From a virus (Duplodnaviria > Caudoviricetes): DNA of 64,000 nucleotides. A model generated the notes under the pieces. The model had not been told where the DNA came from. It ran no database searches and was given only the letters and a program-made list of their open reading frames with translations. The position numbers and the translations under genes were made by a program. Of the stretch, positions 10,346-24,076 are shown one piece after another. The stretch lies in IMG/VR virus record IMGVR_UViG_3300042858_000011, positions 24,010 through 88,009 of that record; one strand, 5' to 3'. Numbering within the stretch: position 1 is the stretch's first letter; the number at the start of each line of letters is the position of its first letter.

Positions 10346-11146
10346 TTATTCTATTGCTTCTGCTAGCTCATCTAAATCTTTTAGCAAATGATTTACTTTT
10401 GATTTGTTAGCATCATCAAGTAAACTCCACATATCAACATAAACTTGTGTATCATCCAACGCATAACTGAACAATATTAACATTAACAAAACATCATAGT
10501 TTTTATTCTGTTTAATTTTGTTTATGAATAACAATGTTTTACTAGCAATCATACGGAAAATCTTTCTTGATGGTAAGTTATAATCAAGAGTTAGTTTTAA
10601 TGCTTCAGTTAAATCTTCTATATTCAAATCAGAAGCATTTATGTATCTATATAGATGATACAATCTCTTATCGAGATTTAATAATTCTGACTCGTTTAAT
10701 TTTAATCCCAGGTTGATCTCAATAATTTTATAGTGTTTACTCAATATATTAGATAAAACTAAATTTTCCAAACCAAATTGTCTTAATAATATGTTTAACT
10801 CATTGTTAAGTCGTTTTAAAATCGATGTTAAGACATTTATTGTATTTTGATTGGGATCATCCTTGAATGAATAATACATAAAACGGTATATATCAAGTAT
10901 AATATCCTTTGATGGATAAGAATTAATTTTTTGCTCCAGTGTGTCTATCATCTTTTCTGCGTAATCATATCTACCTATTTGCAGCATAGCAAGGAAGATT
11001 CTATTGAATAAGATTATGTCAGGTATGTCATATTCATGTTTAAACACATCTTCAACAATATCTTCAAAATCAGTTTCATTAAGATTTGATGTTAGCTTAT
11101 AGAAGGCTCTAACCTCAGCTAAACTGTTTAGTAACATTTTATACAT
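10346..11146 (-). CDS. helical-repeat (TPR-like) hypothetical protein
   Basis: LAMLQIGRYDYAEKMI TPR-like segment; CTAAATTT motif. Confidence 0.5.
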   Translation of the reverse strand: MYKMLLNSLAEVRAFYKLTSNLNETDFEDIVEDVFKHEYDIPDIILFNRIFLAMLQIGRYDYAEKMIDTLEQKINSYPSKDIILDIYRFMYYSFKDDPNQNTINVLTSILKRLNNELNILLRQFGLENLVLSNILSKHYKIIEINLGLKLNESELLNLDKRLYHLYRYINASDLNIEDLTEALKLTLDYNLPSRKIFRMIASKTLLFINKIKQNKNYDVLLMLILFSYALDDTQVYVDMWSLLDDANKSKVNHLLKDLDELAEAIE

Positions 11147-11249
11147 AATAAAAAATTTAGATATGTTAGAATCCAAGCATTGCTAAATAATTTGTAGTTG
11201 TTTTACTTAGTATTGTTATATCATTTGCTTTTGATGTAACTTTTTTATA

Positions 11250-12545
11250 CTATTCATTATTTATACTCCCTTCAACGAATTGCTTTGGAATAGCTATTAC
11301 AAGTCCTATTGGTAAATCTCTGAAGTAAGTTATTTTATTTGTTTTTTTGCTTTTGACTCTAATTGTTATATTTGCATCAACGCTATCACCATCAAAGTCT
11401 CCTCCCAGTGGTGCACAAGCTAACGGATGTATTTGTATTGTATCTTGATCTGCTATAACTGGTTTTGCTGCTAGCCAAGATGTCTTATGCAAAGCTGGGT
11501 CTCTTTTATAAACCACTACAGCATCTGGTAAAACATCTTGCTCTAAAACCTTTCTAAAGAAGTTTATCAATTCTTGTGGAAACAGAGTAGGATAATTGGA
11601 AATCTTGTTTATAAGCTTAGTTATATCATTAACAGCAGGTTTAATCTCTTGTCTTGCAGTTTTTGTTATCTCTATAAATTCTTGTTTGTGTTTTGTTAGT
11701 ATGCTATTAATTATTTGTGGCTTGTATAGTTGCAACAGAGCTGTAAATGGAATAGCAATTTGGTCTATCTCAAGATTTGGATTAGGACTAATAACAGATC
11801 TTGCTGTGTAGTTAACTGTTTTGCTAGCAAGTTGTTCTCTAATAAAACCTGTTTTTGTTCCAAATTGTTCTGCTAACAAATCTATTAGTTTAACGATCAA
11901 CCTATACAATTTTGAGCTATTAGCATTACCAACTTCAAAAGTTTTGTTTTGTTCTATTATTTTTGAGTAAACATCTGTTAACGGATGTATTGATATTTTG
12001 TTGTCTATCTTTGAGTAATCTCTCCAACCAGGAGGAAGCACAATTATTTTGTTTGTTATCAAATTCTCAACTTTATTGTTTGATAATTTGATTATCTCAT
12101 TTATTAACTGACCGGATACACTATTCTGTTGAGCAATATACTCAATCAATTTAATCAGTTTGTTTTTCTCAAAGAAGTCTGCGAAGCCTTGCATCAAGAT
12201 TTTATGATTTGTGTAGCTAATCTCTTTCTCATCTTCCAAAACTAAATTCCCTTCTTCATCAATTGCTAAAATCCTATCTGGTCTGTTTCTGAATGCTCTG
12301 ATTGTGGGTAAATTATCCAGAATCATCAACACAGGAAACTTAGGGATATATACATTCAACGGTATATATCCCATTTGCTCAAACCATTTTGAACTTTTTC
12401 TCTCACCAAATAGATATTGTGAGTACAATCCATTTATTTGGCTCAGTAACTTTTGTTCATTTAAGTTTGCAGGTAATGGTTCCATAATAGCTGGAGCATT
12501 ATGCTCCTTAATAAATTGTTCCACATTTAGTAGTTCAAAAATCAT
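11250..12545 (-). CDS. phage RNA polymerase beta'-like subunit, N-terminus to catalytic motif, ending in putative split-intein N-half
   Basis: GLYSQYLFG, MGYIPL, VLPPGWR, ARSVISPNP, KRDPALH, catalytic GGDFDGD; terminates 44 aa later. Confidence 0.92.
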   Translation of the reverse strand: MIFELLNVEQFIKEHNAPAIMEPLPANLNEQKLLSQINGLYSQYLFGERKSSKWFEQMGYIPLNVYIPKFPVLMILDNLPTIRAFRNRPDRILAIDEEGNLVLEDEKEISYTNHKILMQGFADFFEKNKLIKLIEYIAQQNSVSGQLINEIIKLSNNKVENLITNKIIVLPPGWRDYSKIDNKISIHPLTDVYSKIIEQNKTFEVGNANSSKLYRLIVKLIDLLAEQFGTKTGFIREQLASKTVNYTARSVISPNPNLEIDQIAIPFTALLQLYKPQIINSILTKHKQEFIEITKTARQEIKPAVNDITKLINKISNYPTLFPQELINFFRKVLEQDVLPDAVVVYKRDPALHKTSWLAAKPVIADQDTIQIHPLACAPLGGDFDGDSVDANITIRVKSKKTNKITYFRDLPIGLVIAIPKQFVEGSINNE

Positions 12546-12578: not shown

Positions 12579-14135
12579 CTAAAGCATATCTTTGATTGAT
12601 TTTACGAATTTATTCACATATTCTTGTTCCAAGCCAACTACATAATTTTGAACAAAGTTTATTGCTTCATCGCTATCCTCAACAACAATCACAGACGCAT
12701 TTTTTGCTTTATTAACAACAAGCATAACAATATCCAAAGGTAAATGTTGTCTCAATTTGTCTGATAACTCATTTAAAAACTTTAGTGAATATTTTCCTTT
12801 TAGTGATAGACCTCTGCTTCCATGACTGAACACAGGACCAACTATTAGATTGTATAGCAACATACCAAAGATATGCGGTGCAATTGACTTTAATATTTTT
12901 TCAGCTTCACTTCTGTTTTTAGCCGCTTTCAATATGGATATTAAATCATTGCTAGTTAATGTTGTAGTTTTCCAAGCAACCATACCTGATATATCTCGTA
13001 ATGTTGTAAGATCAAGATTTGCATTATAATCTTTCAATATACTTATTAACTCCATTTTTATGATATGTTCCAACATAGTTAACTTAACCTCTCCTCTACA
13101 TATACGTTTAAACAGATTTATCAAATACTCATTCAAAAAGTCTGGATTTTGTCTATTCAAAAAGCCTGCTAGCTTATACTCATCAGTCTGAGAGTTATAT
13201 AGGAAATATCTCTTCTTAACTCCTGTTCCAAATGCAGAGTCTCCAACAAATTCCAATTTAACTTTTGGATAATGTGCTAGTACTTTTTGTTTGTATGTGT
13301 TTGTAGCAAATCTATGAGCATAAGTGTAAACCAAGGGTAAAATACTATTATTCAAAACATCTTCATGCAAAATATCATATTTATCGTAAACAAAGAAGCT
13401 ATCTGTATCGTTATACATTATGAATTGAGTATTTGCATCAAACTTTTTACGAGCGCTAATAAAATCATTTATATTAACAGACAAATCATTAATATTTTTT
13501 GTTTGTATATAACGATTAATCAAAGCTGATGTTGTTAGAGATATATATTGTCCTGTTATTGTTATGGCTTCAGCAATGTATATATTGTAGAATGGAAATG
13601 AATCTGTTCCGAAGACACCGTACATGCTATTCATGGCAAGTTTGGTTGCATTCTGTATGAGATCTGCAACTTGATCGCCTTGCTTTGCCTTTGCCTTATA
13701 TATATCTCTCATTTTAATCCATTCAACTAAAGTCTTTTCTAGTAAGATAGATAACTGATTACCATTTGTTAGTAATCCATTAGGAGTAACAATTATGTTT
13801 TTGTTTTGTATTAAGTCCAGTAAATCTTGTCCATTCATTTCATGATTGGTAAATCGTTTTGTTGTTATAAACCATTTGTATTTGACAATTTCATCATACA
13901 ATCCAAACCAAAACAATGTTCCAAATATCCTACCTGCAAACCTACCTTTTGCAAAATTATTCCAATAGGATAAATCAGCTTCATTATTTGTTTCAATACA
14001 TAACAATTCTTGCAAGTATTTCTCTTCGTTTTTTATGTTTGATCCTGATACAAATCCATGAACATCTAGAATATTGTTTGCTACCATGAGATTTGGATAT
14101 AGTGAATTTACGTCAAAAACTTTTATTGTTGGCAT
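12579..14135 (-). CDS. family B DNA polymerase, C-terminal polymerase half (split enzyme)
   Basis: Begins at motif A (FDVNSLYP); KLAMNSMYG, YNDTDS, KKRY; no exonuclease domain. Confidence 0.92.
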   Translation of the reverse strand: MPTIKVFDVNSLYPNLMVANNILDVHGFVSGSNIKNEEKYLQELLCIETNNEADLSYWNNFAKGRFAGRIFGTLFWFGLYDEIVKYKWFITTKRFTNHEMNGQDLLDLIQNKNIIVTPNGLLTNGNQLSILLEKTLVEWIKMRDIYKAKAKQGDQVADLIQNATKLAMNSMYGVFGTDSFPFYNIYIAEAITITGQYISLTTSALINRYIQTKNINDLSVNINDFISARKKFDANTQFIMYNDTDSFFVYDKYDILHEDVLNNSILPLVYTYAHRFATNTYKQKVLAHYPKVKLEFVGDSAFGTGVKKRYFLYNSQTDEYKLAGFLNRQNPDFLNEYLINLFKRICRGEVKLTMLEHIIKMELISILKDYNANLDLTTLRDISGMVAWKTTTLTSNDLISILKAAKNRSEAEKILKSIAPHIFGMLLYNLIVGPVFSHGSRGLSLKGKYSLKFLNELSDKLRQHLPLDIVMLVVNKAKNASVIVVEDSDEAINFVQNYVVGLEQEYVNKFVKSIKDML

Positions 14136-14165
14136 AAATGAAAATTTAGATTGGATGCAAAAAAA

Positions 14166-14187
14166 CAAGCCGCCTAAATTTTTTTGT
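14166..14187 (+). promoter_or_regulatory. representative class-I phage promoter motif CA-N6-CTAAATTT-N6-ATG
   Basis: caagccgcctaaatttttttgt-ATG; same geometry before about 31 genes in window. Confidence 0.8.
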
Positions 14188-16106: not shown

Positions 16107-17699
16107 ATGAGTAATTTGACATATAAACCGACACAGTTATTAACTGCTACTATGTTATGCGTTCCATTTCTAAGATTTAACGATCCAAATAGATTGCAGA
16201 TGGCTTCCAACCATCTAAGACAATCTCTACCTTTGGTTAATGCTGAAATTCCGAGGATAAGAACTGGATTTGAGAATGTAATTGTTAAGAAAGCAGAAAG
16301 CTTTTACATTGAGACAAATACTTTTGAGAAAATTGATGAATTTATAGTTAAAACAGATGAAGGTTTGAAGTTTAATGCTATGTTTTTAAAATATGATGAG
16401 AAATTAAAAGTTGCATACAATCCTTATCATATATGTTTTGTCAGAGATATTGTTAGCGGTGGTTGGTGTCCTGAGCTCAAACTAGGAGTAAATGCTTTAG
16501 TTGGTTATATGTCTTACTATGGTTTCAACTATCAAGATGCCGTAGTAATATCTGAATCTTTTGCTAAAAGACTAAAACATATCGAGAGAAAAGTATTTAT
16601 TATTAGATTGCCTGCAAATAGTCAATTAAAACATATCAGTAGTAATGACAATACTATTAGTTTGATACCAATACCAGGTAAAACATACAATACACTAATA
16701 TCCTATGAGTATATTGAAGCAGGTGTATTACAACGAAAACAAATTAATGTTGACAATTTGCTTGTAGTTGATGTAAGAGTTAAAGCTCTACCAAATTACA
16801 GATTACCTGCATCAGTAGCAGAATTCATCAAGAAAGCAAAGAAACCATTCAAACTAGCAAAATTAGAAACAGAACCTACACAAAAATATCCTATTGTTAT
16901 ACAAATAATTGGTTATGTTACCAGAGAAGCAACAATAGGAGATAAACTAACAAATAGACATGGAAACAAAGGAGTCATTGGCTTGATTGTTCCTGATGAA
17001 GAAATGCCCAAAACAAAAGACGGAAAGATATTAGATATATTGTTCTCTCCTCTTTCTGTTCCATCCAGAATGAACCTAGGCCAATTAATGGAAAATTTGC
17101 TTGCAAAAATTGTCGTTAAGGTTGAACAACAGGTATTAGATTTGCTTAATAGGAATATGAGGGATAAAGCTCAAAAAATGTTGCTAGACTTTTTAAAGAG
17201 AGTTGAAAAACGAAGTTCATTTCATCATTTAATTGACAATGTTTTAACTAAAAGATGGGATTTATTGGAGTATAACCTAACAAAATATGGATTGAGCATC
17301 ATACAACCACCTTTTAGTGAATTGAATGCAGAAGAGATAAAACAATTAGCCAAAGACTATAATGTCAAGGAAATAGATTATGTTAGAGTAGACAATTATG
17401 ATGTTAGCATCAATGTGGGTTATCAAACTATATTAAAACTAGAACATTTAGCATCAAGCAAAGTAACAGGAGCAGGCATAACAAACAATGAATACACTAA
17501 TCCACAAAGAATCGGAGAAATGGAAACTTGGAATATCATTGCTCACGATTATGATGAAATTAAGAGATTATTCCGCAGAAGTTATGAATTTGAAAAACTA
17601 TCCTACTATAGCGATAAGTTTGGCTTTGATAGTTATATATTCAAACCTGATGTAAATAATGTATATCAAGTTTACAAGAAAGTTTTATTCAATGAGTAA
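16107..17699 (+). CDS. phage RNA polymerase beta-like subunit, C-terminal part
   Basis: RLQMASNHLRQ, GFNYQDAVVISE, IGDKLTNRHGNKGVI, PLSVPSRMNLGQ, KLEH, QRIGEMETW. Confidence 0.95.
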   Translation: MSNLTYKPTQLLTATMLCVPFLRFNDPNRLQMASNHLRQSLPLVNAEIPRIRTGFENVIVKKAESFYIETNTFEKIDEFIVKTDEGLKFNAMFLKYDEKLKVAYNPYHICFVRDIVSGGWCPELKLGVNALVGYMSYYGFNYQDAVVISESFAKRLKHIERKVFIIRLPANSQLKHISSNDNTISLIPIPGKTYNTLISYEYIEAGVLQRKQINVDNLLVVDVRVKALPNYRLPASVAEFIKKAKKPFKLAKLETEPTQKYPIVIQIIGYVTREATIGDKLTNRHGNKGVIGLIVPDEEMPKTKDGKILDILFSPLSVPSRMNLGQLMENLLAKIVVKVEQQVLDLLNRNMRDKAQKMLLDFLKRVEKRSSFHHLIDNVLTKRWDLLEYNLTKYGLSIIQPPFSELNAEEIKQLAKDYNVKEIDYVRVDNYDVSINVGYQTILKLEHLASSKVTGAGITNNEYTNPQRIGEMETWNIIAHDYDEIKRLFRRSYEFEKLSYYSDKFGFDSYIFKPDVNNVYQVYKKVLFNE

Positions 17700-23469: not shown

Positions 23470-24076
23470 TAACATTTTTGTAAATTTGTCCGTACTTGTA
23501 TATTTTTTGTGAGTAACTGTAATTTATGTCACATGCATGTCTGTATTGTTTGCAACCATGTTCAGTTCTCCAAACACAAACTTTACCTCTGCATTTAGTG
23601 TATCCATAGTTCTTGCAATTTATACATTGATCATAACAAACACTGTGATCAAAAGATTTAGCTCTTTTGCATTCAATTAATGGCCAATTACCACCATTAT
23701 ACATTTGCATCGTTAACCATAATCTTTTCTCTCTGCTTTCTGTGGCACTTGGATTTTTAACATGCAAGATATTAAACAAATAATGTATACCTGCTTGTAT
23801 GTTTCCTGTATAGCTATAAATGTTATATTGAGTTATAACTTCTTTTGGTATAAGGTTTGGAGTTAATTGCATAAAACCAATAGAACCAAGTCCGTCTAGA
23901 GATGTTCTCCATTTACATCCTGTTTCCGCTTGAATTAAACCAAGTACGTACCACCAAGGAGCATCATCAGCTACCATAATCTTTGTGTAATATTGAACAT
24001 GTCTAGCTAGAGATCTACAATCATTTGCATAGGAAATATTTATGAGTGTGAATATTAGTAAAAACAATGTTAGCAT
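23444..24076 (-). CDS. lytic transglycosylase (SLT-type endolysin) with N-terminal signal peptide
   Basis: Hydrophobic N-terminus; IQAETG, SIGFMQL, MYNGG motifs. Confidence 0.85.
   Translation of the reverse strand: MLTLFLLIFTLINISYANDCRSLARHVQYYTKIMVADDAPWWYVLGLIQAETGCKWRTSLDGLGSIGFMQLTPNLIPKEVITQYNIYSYTGNIQAGIHYLFNILHVKNPSATESREKRLWLTMQMYNGGNWPLIECKRAKSFDHSVCYDQCINCKNYGYTKCRGKVCVWRTEHGCKQYRHACDINYSYSQKIYKYGQIYKNVITERWRYW

Follow-up and report, generated by a model that had tools for sequence, protein, structure and literature searches.

The 64,000-nucleotide stretch analysed here (the window; positions 24,010 to 88,009 of the Caudoviricetes record IMGVR_UViG_3300042858_000011) corresponds to bases 30403-94402 of contig C110 in a binned assembly (G000) of 2.0 Mb and 169 contigs. 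It carries the gene for a 431-residue protein in which a fragment of the RNA polymerase (RNAP) beta' subunit breaks off at its catalytic DFDGD motif and continues as a 44-residue tail, which we interpret as the N-terminal half (IntN) of a split intein. Pfam RNA_pol_Rpb1_2 matches residues 242-394 of this open reading frame (ORF) with E 1.4e-25 over profile positions 2-151; as only position 151 of 166 is reached, the match stops at the motif. PHROG families 2987 and 2986 (both 'RNA polymerase beta subunit'; E 3e-21 and 4e-16) and beta' chains in the PDB (E 4e-18 and weaker) are matched as well. With Rpb1 domain 2 and DFDGD on a protein of about 430 residues, hits to phage RNAP PHROGs, and other subunit fragments in the genome, the ORF is by homology a jumbo-phage beta' N-fragment. 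It ends ...ACAPLGGDFDGD, followed by 44 residues (SVDANITIRVKSKK...GSINNE) and a TAG stop. An earlier sequence-only reading of this DNA had claimed that the beta' ORF stops 44 residues after the motif, and this is confirmed, the tail consisting of Ser388 and 43 further residues.

A word-based search with the N-fragment returned 13 relatives. In seven full-length relatives without an insert (432-437 residues), the motif runs on into a conserved strand-helix segment (AMAVVALFTKEAQEEAK type) and the protein stops 55-56 residues after the motif, which is the ordinary jumbo-phage beta' N-fragment; P0013 is an eighth of this type, truncated at the motif. A serine and then a beta-hairpin-like tail, with no post-motif helix, stand in this place in the window's ORF, in its 99% identical twin and in three relatives of 42%, 37% and 25% identity, and tails of 31-52 residues with the same pattern occur in P0007, P0008 and P0017. 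Ser388, directly after the motif, is invariant in all four tail-bearing relatives, as are D383, D385, G386 and D387. The sequence-only reading had also held that the tail stands in place of the conserved final barrel strand and that no ORF with a bridge helix or trigger loop lies in the window; both statements stand, given that the seven insert-free relatives keep a strand and helix to which the tail is unrelated, and that Rpb1 domain 5 has no match on C110, its only phage-like matches lying on a second contig, C161.

The end of the ORF might be an artefact of gene decay into a pseudogene, frameshifting, misassembly or TAG recoding, with the real gene reading on. The frame does stay open for 27 codons past the TAG (YKKVTSKANDITILSK...), and one database copy of the partner protein described below (P0002, 258 residues) is frameshifted just before its C-terminal junction. 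We find this barely credible, because genes 99% identical to ours in two independent IMG/VR records stop at the same TAG codon; as the 90%-identity protein cluster of the N-fragment in addition holds 111 member sequences (with a 431-residue representative 99% identical to the window's protein), the stop does not stem from an accident of assembly. Two divergent relatives, at 42% and 37% identity, likewise stop 52 and 43 residues after the motif. Long ORFs on the two phage contigs end in TAA 59, TGA 26 and TAG 19 times out of 104, and this use of TAG, together with the conserved stop and the frame broken downstream of it in one record, led us to reject recoding or read-through. That broken frame belongs to the 99% identical relative L013, in which stops appear after 10 codons; moreover, an intein profile run against six-frame ORFs of at least 25 residues had no match in the post-TAG frame at E<=10. 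The sequence-only reading was therefore right that the frame is open for 27 codons, but its suggestion that they are the remnant of a longer intein was rejected, since the open frame is not conserved in L013 and does not match the intein profile.

The continuation of beta' lies on C161, in a 345-residue ORF that we read as the C-terminal precursor: a 58-residue helical lead, a Hint part of about 168 residues ending at Asp226, and a 119-residue C-extein starting at Thr227. The intein part ends in VVD before this threonine, after which the sequence proceeds as TAIVYTLHTEEAKK..., aligning to beta' from the residue after DFDGD. Across its five homologues (39-96% identity; the protein cluster has 110 members) the stretch VVD-T-x-I-x-Y-x-x-H-x-EEAKKEA-x-EKM is invariant, including I229, Y231, H234, EEAKKEA (236-242) and EKM (244-246), and by alignment this stretch is the strand and helix that the N-fragment lacks. 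A 16-sequence profile of the partner aligns its positions 176-236/286 to residues 464-523/576 of solved beta' chains (E 3e-4 to 2e-3), beginning at the last Asp of the motif, which is residue 464 in E. coli-type chains. As a ruler we used P0106, an uninterrupted 1019-residue beta' with DFDGD at 305-309, on which BLASTP placed: 1) the N-fragment up to the motif at 305-309 (E 4e-14); 2) residues 223-334 of the partner at 306-412 (E 8e-7); and 3) a 545-residue beta' C-fragment, also encoded on C161, at 414-745 (E 1e-26). The three pieces tile P0106 end to end, and hence this beta' is encoded in three genes, with the first break exactly at DFDGD. With the element removed, the N-extein ends at the motif and the C-extein resumes at the next beta' residue, as in the uninterrupted sequence of the intein-less relatives P0106 and P0009-P0016.

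It could still be argued that this is a plain jumbo-phage beta' split, with the tail a divergent version of the normal strand and the 345-residue ORF unrelated. Intein-less relatives do stop at a similar distance (55-56 residues) past the motif; pairwise HMMER alignments to beta' run ungapped through the first ~14 residues of the tail, so that a faint likeness to the normal strand is possible; and pairwise BLAST and Smith-Waterman comparison of the 345-residue ORF with the beta' of the host gave nothing significant (score 36, against 32.3 +/- 5.6 for shuffles). We nevertheless consider such an arrangement very improbable, as the tail lacks the conserved strand and helix, as the 345-residue ORF carries both in register and itself models as an N-terminally truncated intein, and as the three products cover the uninterrupted beta' without overlap. 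The separately encoded beta' fragment with the C-terminal intein half (IntC) that the sequence-only reading had predicted thus exists elsewhere in the genome, as an N-terminally truncated intein in the model followed by beta' sequence, but it lacks the (His-)Asn ending expected there.

An AlphaFold model of the partner has a mean pLDDT of 62.3, with 10-residue block means of 62-94 over residues ~60-225. The 20 matches that Foldseek lists at E<=1e-3 are inteins without exception; the cysteine-less Aes123 PolB1 split intein comes first (E 6.9e-9), and VIA-align superimposes the model on it with Z 10.7 and a root mean square deviation of 2.6 over 136 residues. The alignment starts at chain residue ~18-27 of every mini-intein, with model residues 72-226 on 19-137 of NpuDnaE and 73-226 on 18-125 of gp41-1. 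As the alignments begin at these residues, the first ~20 residues, or first strands, of the Hint fold are missing from the partner; its N-terminal two thirds are, on the model, an intein without its first strands, for which the tail of the window's ORF would be the obvious supplier. Complex prediction for tail and partner yielded an ipSAE of 0.82 (0.84, 0.82 and 0.81 in the runs; best control 0.00). Solved complexes attain the mark in 58 of 80 cases and mismatched pairs in 2 of 110. At least 60% of contacts are common to the runs, and the partner has a pLDDT of 65-68. In the predicted complex, tail residues 386-401, including Ser388, face partner residues 80-86, 102-105, 130-137, 201-206 and 224-226, and tail residues 386-401, 410 and 413-424 contact the partner at block B (130-137), block F (201-206) and its C-terminal residues (224-226). 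Since solved split-intein structures exist, such a score means likeness to split inteins rather than binding in the cell. On this prediction the products of two separate genes complement a single Hint fold, the tail filling the partner's gap; the proposed intein nature of the tail thereby finds structural backing. At 44 residues, the IntN is far shorter than the canonical 100-130 residues and slightly above the published atypical range of 15-37; the exact secondary-structure position of the split near the N-terminus is one that we infer.

The 58-residue lead (L007:2168-2341) is an extra helical segment before the conserved LF strand and is shared by the closest relatives; most other atypical IntC fragments begin at the LF strand (M-x-LF...) without it. 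In the complex model the last helix of this lead is in contact with the IntN tail. Charge complementarity between tail and lead was considered and dropped, both being roughly neutral to basic. A 64-residue fragment at a contig end (G000:C95:2-193, minus strand) is a strain variant of the N-terminus of the partner.

The residues at the junctions and in the conserved blocks would largely suit a class 1 intein without catalytic cysteine. Position 1 is Ser388 and position +1 is Thr227, in keeping with the Ser1 and Ser/Thr+1 of such inteins. Among 53 junctions bearing D[FYH]DGD, 44 continue with Ser (32), Thr (8) or Cys (4) and non-beta' sequence, and the other nine continue as beta', so that all 44 insert-bearing junctions have a nucleophile at position 1. 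The +1 residue is T in 72, S in 10, C in 2 and G in 1 of 85 family members, the single G coming from the doubtful first domain of P0036. Block B (N3), with the consensus T(S)-x-x-H, appears as S133-N-D135-H136, which is invariant in the five homologues, at least 90% conserved in 16 diverse C-fragments and in contact with the tail in the complex model. Over the same 16 C-fragments H105, S137, D205, G221 and D226 are invariant, and conservation of S133, D135, H136, Y204 and T227 reaches at least 90%. H105, which is 31 residues ahead of H136 and, by the prediction, at the IntN interface, is preceded by Val here and by Lys in some members, and would fit the Ser1-specific 'NX' histidine of PMC10189870. 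The C-terminal Asn, usually His-Asn, is the departure: the last residues here are Val225-Asp226, and over the family the last residue is Asp in 84 of 85 members and never Asn (one of these 84 being an intein-less protein's own motif Asp, and the exception a frameshifted copy), preceded by Q, Y, W or V. Asp- or Gln-terminated inteins are said, by Amitai and co-workers in 2004, to be able to splice. Contiguous alleles that carry an endonuclease interrupt the catalytic loop and the last barrel strand and must splice to give a working enzyme; hence an Asp terminus should be competent, and Asp-terminated chemistry is presumably active in this family.

We consider it probable that a natural, cysteine-less intein, split atypically and having a 44-residue IntN, trans-splices this jumbo-phage beta' directly after the catalytic DFDGD. 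We read the element as a class 1 intein with oxyester chemistry (Ser1, Thr+1), apparently split after its first ~44 residues. The N-precursor would comprise beta' residues 1-387 and the IntN from Ser388, and the C-precursor, encoded ~77 kb away, would supply the last active-site barrel strand and the next part of beta'. Upon docking of the IntN into the incomplete Hint domain, the D387-S388 bond would undergo an N-O acyl shift through Ser388, the N-extein would pass to Thr227, and Asp226, replacing the usual Asn, would cyclise and release the intein. The predicted product is a 506-residue beta' piece with the double-psi barrel intact, which would assemble non-covalently with the 545-residue C-fragment, as in other jumbo-phage RNAPs. 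The claim of the sequence-only reading that the RNAP barrel may be completed only by trans-splicing with a separate partner is thus supported by a tail that is not the normal strand and by a partner with an IntC; association in the cell and the splicing chemistry are what we infer, beside the gene anatomy, extein homology, Hint fold of the partner, junction conservation and family context described in this report.

A different possibility is that the Hint halves still bind but no longer splice, acting as a non-covalent clamp that joins beta' residues 1-387 to the next 119, with the polymerase working while the Hint domain stays attached. The loss of both the terminal Asn and the penultimate His would suit such a clamp, jumbo-phage RNAPs routinely work as non-covalent fragments (as the second, insert-free beta' N-fragment mentioned below and the insert-free relatives illustrate), and the complex prediction speaks for binding rather than chemistry. 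Yet the nucleophile and helper positions are kept even in very divergent members (position 1 in 44/44, block B S-x-D-H, H105, and +1 in 84/85), the Asp terminus is also found in contiguous LAGLIDADG alleles, which cannot be clamps, and, judging from the known position of DFDGD, a domain of ~210 residues would sit on the catalytic Mg loop and break the barrel strand. We therefore hold a clamp to be improbable.

Several further observations weigh against trans-splicing or against the identification of the intein halves. The Pfam Intein_splicing profile misses the partner at E<=1 and at E<=10. A 5-sequence partner profile run against the PDB retrieves no intein, only coiled-coil noise at E 0.4-0.5, and the 16-sequence profile reaches PDB inteins only marginally (9hth at E 0.006; TFIIB inteins at E 0.02-0.03). 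The structural model of the partner was built on an alignment of five rows, and the complex score may echo memory of solved split inteins. Against a sequence profile drawn from 39 contiguous or long-IntN alleles and spanning their initial ~70 intein residues, the window's tail scores 14 bits (E 0.13), over the motif and ~16 residues only. An Asp at -1 is reported in PMC11842431 to cause premature N-cleavage in many inteins; a family at the DFDGD site must cope with an Asp fixed there by the motif. To these come the missing Asn and penultimate His and the ungapped HMMER alignments discussed above.

The partner by itself has no match in Pfam (E<=1), in PHROG (E<=0.01) or by sequence in the PDB, where the one hit is a chance match of E 0.055, and Intein_splicing run over the whole assembly gives a single sub-threshold match (E 0.136), on contig C148, which is unrelated. 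With a profile of the partner, 103 proteins were recovered at E<=1e-3 from among 1.84 billion, which we sorted by profile coordinates and motif into: 1) 39 C-fragments split at the same atypical point; 2) 27 contiguous forms, 23 of them clear and 4 with the C-part alone aligned; 3) 12 N-fragments with a long IntN of 121-153 residues, the canonical split; 4) 2 C-fragments with a short IntC; 5) 1 intein-less beta'; 6) 16 long proteins with an internal C-junction and no exact motif match; and 7) 6 other or unaligned proteins. In the contiguous P0025, P0029 and P0061, Pfam LAGLIDADG_3 (E 1e-7 to 1.5e-11) lies between Rpb1_2 and Rpb1_3-5, and two of the three have a sub-threshold Intein_splicing match; these contiguous members are mobile inteins of the usual build. 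In three other contiguous members (P0024, P0051 and P0055) the N-part of the intein profile matches a third time, at the extreme C-terminus and a few residues past the first C-junction, a hint that a second intein, canonically split, follows closely on the first. In GenBank phages, tblastn with the partner found no match, and searches with the contiguous P0026 and with the N-half matched beta' parts only and nothing in the intein region; the nearest cultured matches are jumbo phages of Listeria, Staphylococcus and Bacillus (AR9/PBS1), at ~24-29% identity.

The setting of these genes (Table 1) is that of a large phage. C110 (94.4 kb, 31.8% GC, against a median contig GC of 37% in the assembly) encodes a Gp23-type major capsid protein, SNF2 and DnaB-like helicases, a primase, a family-B DNA polymerase fragment and RNAP fragments, and the host rpoB and rpoC lie on a separate contig (C101, 44.7% GC), the host beta' being 1359 residues long and uninterrupted. 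A near-identical IMG/VR record of 129 kb is rated ~50% complete, so that the genome should be roughly 250 kb, i.e. that of a jumbo phage. In assembly G000 the N-fragment and partner genes sit on different contigs (C110 and C161); on the 129-kb record they occur together (99% identity, minus strand, and 97% identity, plus strand, respectively), ~77 kb apart. C161, a second low-GC contig of 22.5 kb, holds a 914-residue beta, two beta' C-like genes (545 and 308 residues) and the partner ORF. The 129-kb record also contains a second beta' N-fragment of 461 residues (L015:1420-2805, minus strand), with the motif DADGD followed by the normal strand and no insert, which was not found in G000; this insert-free fragment suggests that the phage has two polymerase sets, as in phiKZ-like phages, with the intein in only one of them, and the 308-residue beta' C-like gene probably belongs to the second set.

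Table 1. Coordinates of the beta' gene fragments, the predicted intein halves and accompanying RNA polymerase genes (window numbering unless a contig or locus is named)
Feature	Position	Strand	Basis or remark
RNA polymerase beta' N-fragment gene, 431 residues (N-extein 1-387 and predicted IntN 388-431)	11250..12545	minus	ORF list, Pfam, PHROG, PDB
DFDGD catalytic motif codons	11385..11399	minus	D387, the last Asp, would be the -1 residue of the N-terminal splice junction
Predicted IntN, 44 residues (S388-E431); Ser388, predicted first nucleophile, codon 11382-11384	11253..11384	minus	Ser388 conservation, tails of relatives, complex prediction
TAG stop ending the IntN	11250..11252	minus	same stop in two IMG/VR relatives; all three stops in use
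27 sense codons after the TAG	11169..11249	minus	intergenic spacer
Partner (predicted C-terminal precursor), 345 residues	G000:C161:2168-3202	plus (in the IMG/VR record)	parts as given in the text
RNA polymerase beta fragment, 530 residues (Rpb2 domain 6)	16107..17699	plus	Pfam PF00562, E 5e-39; context, outside the intein
beta' C-fragment, 545 residues	C161:14278-15912 (= L007)	minus	starts near the end of Rpb1 domain 3; abuts the C-extein of the partner on the beta' ruler
beta' C-like gene, 308 residues	L007:6230-7153	minus	starts near the end of Rpb1 domain 3

The N-fragment gene is held by 20 public runs from 14 studies, labelled as hot-spring or microbial-mat metagenomes. Three metatranscriptome runs contain 76-79% of its words, and their contigs also cover the whole partner ORF, with no indels inside it; contigs of RNA libraries, which may carry DNA, cannot prove transcription, and this too is to be counted among the points against.

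The family-B DNA polymerase of this phage is likewise encoded in two genes, ~21 kb apart on opposite strands: a 529-residue piece in the window (12579-14168, minus), beginning a few residues before the DxxSLYP motif, and a 615-residue frame outside it (C110:19842-21686, plus), with an exonuclease domain, a GEAPG-type motif near its N-terminus and an end just before DxxSLYP. Neither end has Hint-like sequence, and the arrangement resembles a simple split, located where inteins classically insert. Directly downstream of the N-fragment gene lies a 276-residue ORF (window 10346-11176, minus) with no Pfam or PHROG match and no sign of a homing endonuclease.

Among known split inteins, the closest in build is PolB16 OarG, from a PolB-type DNA polymerase in a sheep-gut metagenome, which PMC13014065 calls the only known natural cysteine-less atypically split intein. 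It resembles the present element in the atypical N-terminal split, Ser1 and the absence of catalytic Cys, and its oxyester class 1 chemistry and NX histidine (PMC10189870) would have counterparts here, with H105 as the candidate for the latter, but it differs in host protein, in the sizes of its halves (IntN 15 and IntC 168 residues, versus 44 and 226 here) and in ending at Asn183 with Ser+1, whereas the DFDGD-site intein ends in Asp with Thr+1 and its IntC has the extra 58-residue lead. The Aes123 PolB1 split intein leads the structural matches of the partner and, with E 0.006, also the PDB inteins reached by sequence profile; together with its relatives, the CP21, LCGC14 and GOM-OPS-1 PolB inteins, it shares the cysteine-less Ser1 and the residence in phage polymerases, but that group has PolB as its host, a canonical split (IntN 115-120, IntC 39-46 residues) and Ser+1 (PMC12707363). 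AceL-TerL, GOS-TerL and VidaL, from phages or metagenomes, have a short IntN of 15-37 residues, split after strand beta2 or the first helix (PMC13014065). The structural matches of the partner include VidaL and an engineered atypically split intein (Z 7.0-7.1); in contrast to the present element, however, this group has Cys1, other hosts (terminase and others) and a shorter IntN.

Split inteins are otherwise known in phage PolB polymerases (PMC6892783, PMC12707363, PMC10189870), and inteins are known at conserved sites in archaeal RNAP (COG0086), in chloroplast RpoB and in RNAP subunits of eukaryotes and giant viruses (PMC4760082, PMC5784728); these two surveys, in the parts available, list inteins by taxon without naming insertion site, split state or phage, and contain no phage beta' DFDGD site. 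The 'fractured genes' of Dassa et al. 2009 are likewise naturally split inteins in phage-like metagenomic genes, but there a homing-endonuclease gene stands between adjacent halves, whereas the present halves are encoded on opposite strands with ~77 kb between them; 'RNA polymerase' occurs 0 times in the main text of that paper. A full-text search of open-access papers and bioRxiv, without supplements or intein registries, found no phage RNAP beta' described as having an intein, whether split or unsplit. The RNAPs of phiKZ- and AR9-like phages also have beta' in several genes, two polymerase sets per genome and the same PHROG families, but their fragments are non-covalent and break ~55 residues past DFDGD, whereas here the break is at the motif and would be bridged by intein halves. 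Neither phiKZ nor AR9 is known to carry an intein at the DFDGD site, in line with the GenBank phage searches, which matched no intein region. We rate as new the DFDGD host site, the 44-residue IntN, the Asp terminus and the coexistence of split forms.

If trans-splicing takes place as proposed, the active site of a multisubunit phage RNAP would be finished post-translationally by the joining of two proteins at the catalytic Mg-binding loop, an extra layer on the already fragmented jumbo-phage polymerases and a possible timing switch. It is a more doubtful proposal that trans-splicing is an obligatory, possibly regulatory maturation of one of the two RNAPs of the phage, its barrel being completed only once both precursors meet, with precursor genes ~77 kb apart on opposite strands that may belong to different temporal classes, and that the DFDGD-loop inteins form a large undescribed family of Ser1/Thr+1 type with an Asp terminus that was split independently at two positions; such a family would also provide new cysteine-less split inteins with a short IntN, part of them from hot springs. 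As Pfam and PHROGs miss the partner entirely, annotation is expected to call such polymerases truncated and to enter the partner as hypothetical. Contiguous forms, forms with an endonuclease and forms split canonically or atypically all occur at the insertion site directly after DFDGD, and with its near-universal C-terminal Asp the family is a natural experiment on splitting and on the last step of splicing. Cysteine-less split inteins with a short IntN are rare, and this family offers dozens of candidates (39 atypically split clusters).

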